Shown here: positions 16,676-16,815 of the stretch, piece after piece
How the letters are laid out: each line of letters opens with the position of its first letter
How positions within the stretch are numbered: position 1 is the first letter of the stretch
From: Escherichia coli
GTDB lineage: Bacteria; Pseudomonadota; Gammaproteobacteria; Enterobacterales; Enterobacteriaceae
Assembly: GCA_031701365.1 (NCBI GenBank)
Contig: GCA_031701365.1_4118.1
DNA: 64,000 nt
Direction: 5' to 3' (one strand)
Notes under the pieces: model-generated
What the model was told of the DNA's origin: nothing
The model's input: the letters and a program-made list of their open reading frames with translations, nothing else
The model's database searches: none
Translations under genes and position numbers: made by a program

Positions 16676-16815
16676 CCATCTAGACGGCTAAACGGCTAGA
16701 TTTCTGGATGGCTGGATGGCTAGACGTTTGGACGGCTAAACGGCTAAACGGCTAAACGGCTAAACGGCTAAACGGCTAGATGGTTACACGTCTGGAAGTA
16801 TAGACGGCTAAATCA
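16676..16815. repeat. iteron cluster
   Basis: about five tandem copies of 8-bp ACGGCTAA (16731-16780), TGGATGGC x2, dispersed TAGACGGCTAAA and TCTGGAAGTA copies. Confidence 0.7.

Follow-up and report, generated by a model that had tools for sequence, protein, structure and literature searches.

Natural operators of the repressor MetJ have 2-5 boxes, and contiguous short repeats are bound not only by MetJ but also by other proteins of the ribbon-helix-helix (RHH) type, the omega repressor among them. Repeated motifs are likewise found in packaging sites that work with host accessory factors (lambda cosB with IHF, the hexamers of P1 pac, pacL/pacR of SPP1), in the CCTAAAG-type SRL/SRR short-repeat arrays that flank the terminal repeat of T7, and in origins of replication, where the iterons of plasmids and phages are bound by Rep proteins (T4 oriE also belongs here). 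The short-repeat arrays by phage terminal repeats and in the T5 injection-stop region (iss) have been on record for decades, to our knowledge with no binder assigned to them. The present analysis concerns an array of 8-bp repeats at positions 16650-16809 of a 64,000-nucleotide stretch of the Escherichia coli assembly GCA_031701365.1 (contig GCA_031701365.1_4118.1; the whole stretch is referred to as the window). A first reading, made from the sequence alone (the sequence-only reading), had proposed that these repeats are iterons of a replication origin or a packaging signal. The best-supported finding of our analysis is that the "iterons" appear to be a super-array of operator units of the host repressor MetJ, located near the terminus of a phage genome. 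No earlier description of MetJ or of its operator boxes (metboxes) in phage genomes was found in the literature searched. The 2-kb surroundings of the array match 42 phage records at 86-94% identity, all of them Asteriusvirus jumbo coliphages (including PBECO4, 121Q, G17, SP27 and fEgEco12), and the window belongs to an Asteriusvirus phage genome (PBECO4/121Q-like, ~350 kb).

Sequence of the array and comparison with the MetJ metbox

Tandem Repeats Finder detects a tract of period 8 at 16732-16778, with 5.9 copies of the unit ACGGCTAA at 100% match. This bears out the claim of about five head-to-tail copies of an 8-bp unit. The perfect tract is embedded in wider arrays of period 16/24 (16679-16812), and ACGGCTAA occurs seven times in 64 kb, every time within 16684-16811, for 0.85 occurrences expected. 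The flanking copies of TAGACGGCTAAA are present at 16681 and 16801 and GTCTGGAAGTA is repeated (two occurrences), both as first reported, while the two copies of TGGATGGC are real but located at 16705-16720, one base away from the coordinates initially given. Read in a single register, 16650-16809 divides into 20 adjoining 8-bp units that form a degenerate array, in the order AGAAGTCT GGAAGTAA AGATGGCT ATCCATCT AGACGGCT AAACGGCT AGATTTCT GGATGGCT GGATGGCT AGACGTTT GGACGGCT, then five copies of AAACGGCT followed by AGATGGTT ACACGTCT GGAAGTAT AGACGGCT. The perfect tract corresponds to a fivefold expansion of one AAACGGCT box type inside this array. Close relatives have a single AAACGGCT unit where the window has five consecutive ones, and the 5.9-copy tract is a strain-specific expansion. 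This is also the reason why an exact 23-mer of the perfect tract has no match in the IMG/VR database. The variation of array length in whole 8-bp units is a strain marker.

Each metbox is bound by one MetJ homodimer, and repression needs at least two adjacent boxes (PMC3228920). The array was scored with the half-metbox matrix and the thresholds of that study, where a single metbox passes with at least one quarter of the consensus score and the total of a site must reach the consensus score of 12.58 bits. With AGAYGKCT as the frame, the units read AGACGGCT, AAACGGCT, GGATGGCT, AGACGTTT, AGAAGTCT and so on, which is the form of the metbox. The single-metbox threshold is exceeded by 19 of the 20 units, with a mean of 7.1 bits per box. 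Eighteen consecutive in-phase boxes (16666-16809) reach a total of 133.3 bits; before them, AGAAGTCT at 16650 scores 8.6 bits and GGAAGTAA at 16658 is the sole failing unit. The scan of the 64-kb window returned 864 single boxes, 12 doubles and one run of 18, the runner-up being a site of 2 boxes and 14.3 bits. None of 100 Markov simulations exceeded a total of 22.5 bits, and their longest runs comprised 2-4 boxes. As controls, the operators of metJ/metB (4 boxes, 31.2 bits) and metF (4 boxes, 24.9 bits) of E. coli K-12 were recovered by the same scan. These met operators were scored directly in place of a BLAST search, since the array had no match in 5,426 E. coli genomes and operators are too short for a database of that size. 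A search of bacterial genomes with a degenerate pattern was uninformative: the matches listed were nearly all simple microsatellites, from phyla that lack MetJ.

Like the MetJ operators, the array is composed of 8-bp units set head to tail without spacers, with the T/A junction and a palindromic consensus. The 13 distinct units of the window have the palindrome AGACGTCT as their exact consensus, and the same sequence is obtained from 42 units of other Rak2-like genera and from the 86-107 units of all arrays pooled. The information content per box is comparable, with 6.1-8.0 bits in the phage arrays and 6.2-7.8 bits in the metJ/metB and metF operators. The base-frequency matrix of the arrays is correlated to the MetJ matrix with r=0.91-0.92 in the correct phase and r no higher than 0.04 in the other seven phases. 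The observed variants at a Hamming distance of 2-3 from the consensus far outscore random variants on the MetJ matrix (P<5e-5).

Position of the array relative to the genome ends

The termini were placed in the window by homology to relatives with mapped ends. A BLAST search with the segment 16560-16960 revealed a homologous block located ~680-1065 bp from position 1 in the records with determined ends, and present twice per record. This block is annotated as "Direct Terminal Repeats" in vB_Ec-M-J and as "redundant repeat" in CBB. For fEgEco12, PhageTerm gave the ends and restriction digests bore them out (PMC13070987). Position 1 of this phage and position 1 of vB_Ec-M-J both map to 15904 of the window, and the ends of the direct terminal repeat (DTR) of vB_Ec-M-J (21,525) and of fEgEco12 (20,993) map to 36095 and 36096, respectively. 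The window therefore holds one collapsed copy of a ~20.2-kb DTR (15904-36095), so that the physical ends and the extent of the repeat are now fixed, by homology, for this genome. The DTR lengths reported elsewhere are 20,668 bp in Sharanji (PhageTerm), 17,581 bp in XbC2 (PhageTerm) and 22,456 bp in CBB (read depth). The array is found 747-906 bp inside the inferred left DTR boundary, near the cut site but not at it. The proposal of a packaging signal is thus retained in part: the array is close to the left end and its position is conserved, but it does not coincide with the cut.

The inferred left end of the virion DNA, which is the left DTR boundary (15904-15924, + strand), begins with AGTAGGCAGAGGAAGTCTGCC and contains a GGCAGA/TCTGCC hairpin at 15908-15924, a hairpin that is seen at the left end in Asteriusvirus. 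The motif GAAGTC is found at +12 to +17 of the left end in Asteriusvirus, CBB, BF and XbC2. The inferred right DTR boundary (36095-36096, + strand) falls between GGGCGGGTAACCT and TAGCGACTTCG, and the motif CTAAAGGxCxGTAACxx, followed across the boundary by TTAGCGA, is common to the window and to CBB (at 22,456). These terminal sequences support a precise and conserved cut, and the conserved left and right boundary sequences are candidate contexts of the terminase cut site. A GAAGTC/GACTTC motif shared by both DTR boundaries was also considered; it was rejected, the right boundary of CBB having no such motif.

Distribution of the array among phages

The core array comprises 12 units in G17, 14 in vB_Ec-M-J, SP27 and ECO103, 15 in fEgEco12 and 18 in the window. 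These differences of length between Asteriusvirus arrays always correspond to whole 8-bp units and the register is kept. Each unique genome has exactly one array; in one whole relative genome it comprises 14 boxes, 795-906 bp from the left end, and all other runs have at most 3 boxes. The Asteriusvirus arrays start 747-805 bp and stop 906-916 bp from the end. In the Mimasvirus phages CBB and XbC2 and the Eneladusvirus phages BF and pEa50, which have only about a third of their proteins in common with the coliphages, arrays of 15-16 units span 648-804 bp from the left end. The position of the array relative to the left end is consequently kept across four Rak2-like genera (648-916 bp overall), and the ends from which these distances are counted were set independently in fEgEco12 (PhageTerm and restriction digests), XbC2 (PhageTerm) and CBB (read depth). 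The arrays of CBB, XbC2, BF and pEa50 all terminate in AGACGTTT AGACGGCT AAAx. A GAATTTTGGGTGTA box precedes the array in CBB, BF and pEa50 (at ~650 in CBB and BF); the sole counterpart in XbC2 is a related box on the downstream side of the array (~1010). The 18-mer TTAGYTCCCCTTCCGCG is present 3' of the array in CBB, BF, pEa50 and XbC2 (CBB ~825-842, BF ~822-839, XbC2 ~793-810). It reads AATAGTTCCCCTACCGCG in the window (16833-16850) and lies ~25 nt downstream of the array in the four genera.

The BLAST search also matched members of the Demerecviridae (T5-like phages). Vibrio phage Pontus displays 15 boxes, and the Aeromonas phages AhSzq-1 and AhP_Mru1 display 28 and 15+2 boxes. These arrays lie between DnaA boxes and repeats of the GTGCAAATCCGAC type, a location that corresponds to "Repeat Region 3" / iss of T5, at the inner edge of its left terminal repeat. 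IMG/VR was scanned with a degenerate pattern of five units. Most of the 28 loci recovered are trivial microsatellites of the (GGAT)n type, and the only informative loci are those of PGT2, of phiKT and of a few T5-sized contigs, in which the arrays reach 34 boxes (272 bits). PGT2 and phiKT are T7-like Escherichia phages (Autographiviridae, Ermolevavirus). In PGT2, 9-10 boxes are located at 38-117 of the 260-bp DTR, and a second periodic tract, rich in TATCT/ATCT repeats, occurs just past this DTR (255-370). A gene annotated as a SAM (S-adenosylmethionine)-dependent methyltransferase is found in the same phage at 2683-3177, 2.6 kb from the array. Three unrelated lineages, whose exact terminal repeats measure 0.26, ~10 and ~20 kb, thus have the array within the repeat and at 40-1000 bp from one of its boundaries, the distance in the T5-like phages being deduced from homology to T5.

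The locus can also be compared with Repeat Region 3/iss of T5. In both cases an untranslated and repeat-dense region of ~1-2 kb extends over the DTR boundary, with an overrun of 270 bp in T5 and 284 bp here. The T5 region contains sites for a host protein (DnaA), and the metbox array of the Vibrio/Aeromonas T5-like phages is inside the corresponding region. Unlike that region, the Asteriusvirus region is devoid of DnaA boxes and contains TCAGTACTGA palindromes and ATTTTGGG boxes instead of DRD-type repeats; T5 has no metboxes, and two-step injection is not known for Rak2-like phages. As in the SRL/SRR arrays of T7, known for a long time, short direct repeats are found beside or inside the terminal repeat of an exact-ended phage, but the SRL/SRR unit is different, its spacing is irregular and no link with a host protein is known. 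The pac and cos sites resemble the array in having short repeated motifs near an end made by terminase, and host DNA-binding proteins can be their accessory factors. They differ in that about 750 bp lie between the array and the cut and in that the units of the array match a host repressor rather than a terminase site.

Candidate binding proteins

MetJ is confined to the Enterobacterales, Pasteurellales, Vibrionales, Aeromonadales and Alteromonadales (PMC3228920), and E. coli has metJ. The array-bearing phages found by BLAST infect Escherichia, Salmonella, Klebsiella, Cronobacter, Erwinia, Serratia, Pectobacterium, Yersinia, Vibrio, Aeromonas and Pseudoalteromonas. With the exception of XbC2, the hosts of these phages belong to MetJ-bearing orders. 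No MetJ homologue encoded in the phage records was found, and no RHH family was detected among 65 small open reading frames (ORFs) in and around the DTR. A host factor would therefore be the simplest common binder for unrelated phages. DUF7249, which is common to PGT2 and to the Asteriusviruses, was considered as a binder and set aside, its sequence having no RHH pattern, although this is a weak argument.

Proposed role of the array and alternative explanations

We propose that the giant metbox array in the DTR leader is an element coated by host MetJ·SAM and serving a step at the genome end, a proposal which seems to us evenly poised between right and wrong. MetJ dimers loaded with the corepressor SAM would bind one per 8-bp box and polymerise cooperatively, so as to coat about 160 bp with roughly 19-20 dimers on every DTR copy. 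The coated segment would act in cis, as an architectural element or a roadblock, in a step linked to the terminal repeat. In this step, the packaging machinery could recognise or process the concatemer junction; alternatively, the step could be the control of DNA entry, as at the injection-stop region of T5. A cis role in an end-linked step is favoured because the position is kept in four genera and the array recurs in the terminal repeats of three families. The analysis shows that the array shares its sequence with metbox arrays, where it lies with respect to mapped termini and that it is conserved in several phage lineages; we infer the binding of MetJ in vivo and, with greater reserve, the step served. 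More tentatively, and with the chances rather against it, the Rak2-like jumbo myoviruses, the Vibrio/Aeromonas T5-like siphoviruses and one T7-like podovirus, three unrelated families, may each have placed a MetJ super-operator of 10-34 boxes inside the terminal repeat, 40-1000 bp from its boundary, MetJ·SAM being in that case an unrecognised host factor, and a sensor of the SAM status, for a genome-end transaction such as the processing of concatemer junctions with packaging, or a staged entry of the DNA. The result points to a named, purifiable and non-essential host protein with a small-molecule switch, SAM, and hence to a directly testable question. If MetJ is used at the phage ends, the methionine/SAM status of the host would be linked to packaging or DNA entry, and a first molecular handle would be available on terminal short-repeat arrays and on the T5-type injection-stop region.

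Several observations weigh against this interpretation. The right half-site is often GGCT, with G at position 6 in ~44% of the units for ~10% in natural boxes; the array is therefore polar and each box sub-optimal. The adjacent boxes and the score are those of a metbox array, but the number of boxes (18-20 here and up to 28-34 in the T5-like phages, for 4 in the two E. coli operators scanned) is far above that of the natural operators of 2-5 boxes, and the location is a phage terminal repeat, away from any promoter of met or SAM genes. Tandem duplication by itself turns any threshold-passing unit into a long run, and trivial (GGAT)n microsatellites also pass, in phages and in bacteria without MetJ; the case is therefore based on the diversity of the units and on their consensus, not on the length of the run. 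XbC2 was isolated on Xanthomonas, whose order is reported without MetJ, and its array is well preserved (14 of 16 units pass, 648-775). This would mean another natural host for XbC2, a relic array, or a binder other than, or besides, MetJ. T5 itself was scanned and contains zero metboxes, other repeats occupying that place. Finally, some 750 bp separate the array from the cut site, no promoter overlaps it, and the downstream function, whether packaging or entry, is argued from position.

The main rival is that the array acts as a MetJ decoy (sponge), which we hold to be rather unlikely. During replication, boxes numbering hundreds to thousands would titrate MetJ·SAM and derepress the host met regulon, providing more methionine and SAM for heavy protein and DNA synthesis and for SAM-dependent methylation. 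If so, a phage would reprogram host metabolism with a DNA-encoded, gene-free device. The metbox evidence is the same for the decoy as for the end-linked element, phage SAM lyases are known to derepress the met regulon via the MetJ corepressor (PMC7877911), and the SAM-dependent methyltransferase gene of PGT2, as annotated, is near its array. The stoichiometry is also plausible, since 12-18 boxes per DTR copy and a burst of the Sharanji type (about 96 genomes per cell, as derived from the reported 33,607 kbp per cell) would give more than 1,000 boxes per cell. The near-end position would then be incidental, the array simply occupying free non-coding space of which each virion genome has two copies. 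However, a decoy needs no set position, and the distance to the terminus is near-constant in four genera, with the array inside the terminal repeat in three families. Moreover, T5-like phages degrade the host DNA and shut off host transcription early, as is generally known and consistent with the annotation of T5 A1, so that derepression of host genes would be pointless for them. Another rival is a genuine site of the pac type, or one for terminus processing, whose reader would be encoded by the phage (the small subunit of terminase, for example, or an RHH-type protein that escaped detection); its resemblance to metboxes would then be convergent or due to a shared mode of DNA recognition. The proximity to mapped termini and the conserved position are in agreement with such a site, the flanking ATTTTGGG(Y)GTA and TTAGYTCCCCTTCCGCG boxes travel with the array in the Rak2-like genera, and the binding of contiguous short repeats is, as noted above, not exclusive to MetJ among RHH proteins. 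We nevertheless judge it improbable: three unrelated families with unrelated packaging proteins have the same unit, the consensus is exactly the MetJ palindrome with a variation like that tolerated by MetJ, the 65 ORFs of the DTR region yielded no RHH family, and the cut is 750 bp away.

Two further explanations have very little probability in our opinion. A functionless, slippage-prone minisatellite in a non-coding spacer would account for the copy number varying by whole units among close relatives, and simple microsatellites of 4 or 8 bp with similar units are common in many genomes. Yet the array is degenerate, genera sharing only ~1/3 of their proteins have kept its register, the units at its two ends and its distance to the terminus, and the variation of its units is biased towards the bases tolerated by MetJ. 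The replication origin with initiator-binding iterons, as advanced in the sequence-only reading, is hardly to be believed either. In its favour, direct repeats are present in a long non-coding region, the T5-like arrays adjoin DnaA boxes, and the GC-skew check proposed at that stage gives a sign change (~15.5-15.75 kb) and a cumulative minimum in this place. In a whole relative genome rotated to its left end, the cumulative G-C climbs from kb 1 to 328 and then drops, with the circular minimum at the junction, so that the skew outcome named in the sequence-only reading as refuting an origin (a minimum elsewhere) is not the one obtained. This signal is unspecific, as it coincides with the DTR boundary and with the differing composition of the gene blocks; the + strand ORFs of 11989-15619 have a negative GC skew, so the skew flips at the DTR boundary and not at the switch of coding strand. 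Iterons of origins are similarly direct repeats in non-coding DNA, but they are helically phased units of 17-22 bp, unlike the contiguous 8-bp units observed here. No DnaA box occurs in 15620-17582 and matches across the whole window are at chance level. No AT-rich or DNA unwinding element is present at the array, which is on the contrary the GC-richest part of its region (GC 0.42-0.44). No initiator or replication gene was found near the array, Pfam giving only DUF7249, DksA/TraR, GNAT and ParE-like domains in the flanking small ORFs. The origins of T5, for their part, map to the centre of the genome and not to its terminal repeat (LTR).

Features of the surrounding region

The array belongs to a non-coding, repeat-dense region of 1.96 kb (15620-17582) that straddles the DTR boundary, with 284 bp outside and 1.68 kb inside. 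The assertion that no credible ORF exists in this region is upheld, only TTG/GTG ORFs of 41-85 amino acids being listed there, and zero coding sequences are annotated over the array region in G17 and SP27. By contrast, the assertion that the region separates oppositely oriented gene blocks proved wrong: the ORFs of 11989-15619 and those from 17583 onward are all on the + strand, and the true strand switch is at ~11.7-12.0 kb. A palindrome described at 15665-15704 is real but imperfect (TTAACATATG/CATATGTTAA within CAGGCT/AGCCTG). A search of Rfam (E-value mode) with 11-19 kb gave zero matches. Two sigma-70-like promoters were recognised by consensus match only. One (TTGACT-N16-TATAAT, 16237-16264, + strand) would read rightward towards the array, and transcription from the other (TTGACA-N17-GATAAT, 16908-16936, - strand) would run leftward, across the array and on towards the terminus. 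None of the predicted promoters overlaps the array, and for this reason a classical operator role was not adopted.

The 10-bp exact palindrome TCAGTACTGA is present seven times between 15824 and 17447 (starts at 15824, 15884, 16210, 16419, 16966, 17128 and 17438), together with degenerate copies. The whole window contains 17 occurrences for 0.05 expected, the others being scattered at 19244, 19980, 20696, 21598, 29782, 32784, 40492, 55614, 56379 and 59411. A variant, TCAGTACTGT, occupies the spacer of the promoter at 16237-16264. A whole relative genome has 48 copies of TCAGTACTGA, 9 of which are within the first 10 kb, and the density of AGTACT is doubled across the DTR. This palindrome looks like an operator-type site for some dimeric regulator, and its AGTACT core is reminiscent of the SlmA site GTGAGTACTCAC. 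Immediately upstream of the array, two ATTTTGGG(Y)GTA boxes are found on the + strand (16595-16632), with further ones at 16976-16987 and 17192-17203 (4 occurrences for 0.38 expected). TTTGGG-rich boxes also adjoin the boundary of the terminal repeat in T5 (10000-10150), Pontus and AhSzq-1, and boxes of the ATTTTGGG type may be a second element common to terminal-repeat boundaries. On the - strand, 16955-17260 includes two paralogous units of ~80 nt, each after a sigma-70-like promoter. Each unit has a GAGAAA loop and terminates in TTACGCCCAAAAT, and the stems differ in sequence (AGTC/GACT in one, CGC/GCG in the other). The pair hints at small RNA genes or structured DNA.

Inside the DTR, ~50 small ORFs were scanned (17583-36095), among which are a DksA/TraR zinc-finger protein, a GNAT acetyltransferase and a ParE-like toxin domain. 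This gene set looks like a host-takeover set, comparable to the pre-early genes of T5. Two DUF7249 genes are carried by the DTR (18413-18652 and 20423-20692). The T7-like phage PGT2 has a copy of this gene (2123-2362) with about 83% DNA identity, 2 kb from its metbox array, and this sharing suggests that early-region modules may be exchanged between unrelated phages. On the other side of the boundary, 11989-15619 contains 16 small ORFs on the + strand (about 59-81 amino acids, one of 223), with a GC skew of -0.1 to -0.3 and a strongly positive AT skew, in contrast to the + strand genes of the DTR. Right before the strand switch, nine tandem ORFs of 358-433 amino acids are found on the - strand (787-11661). 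They are apparent paralogues, and the SP27 annotation labels two of them RCC1-like / "putative DNA condensation protein".

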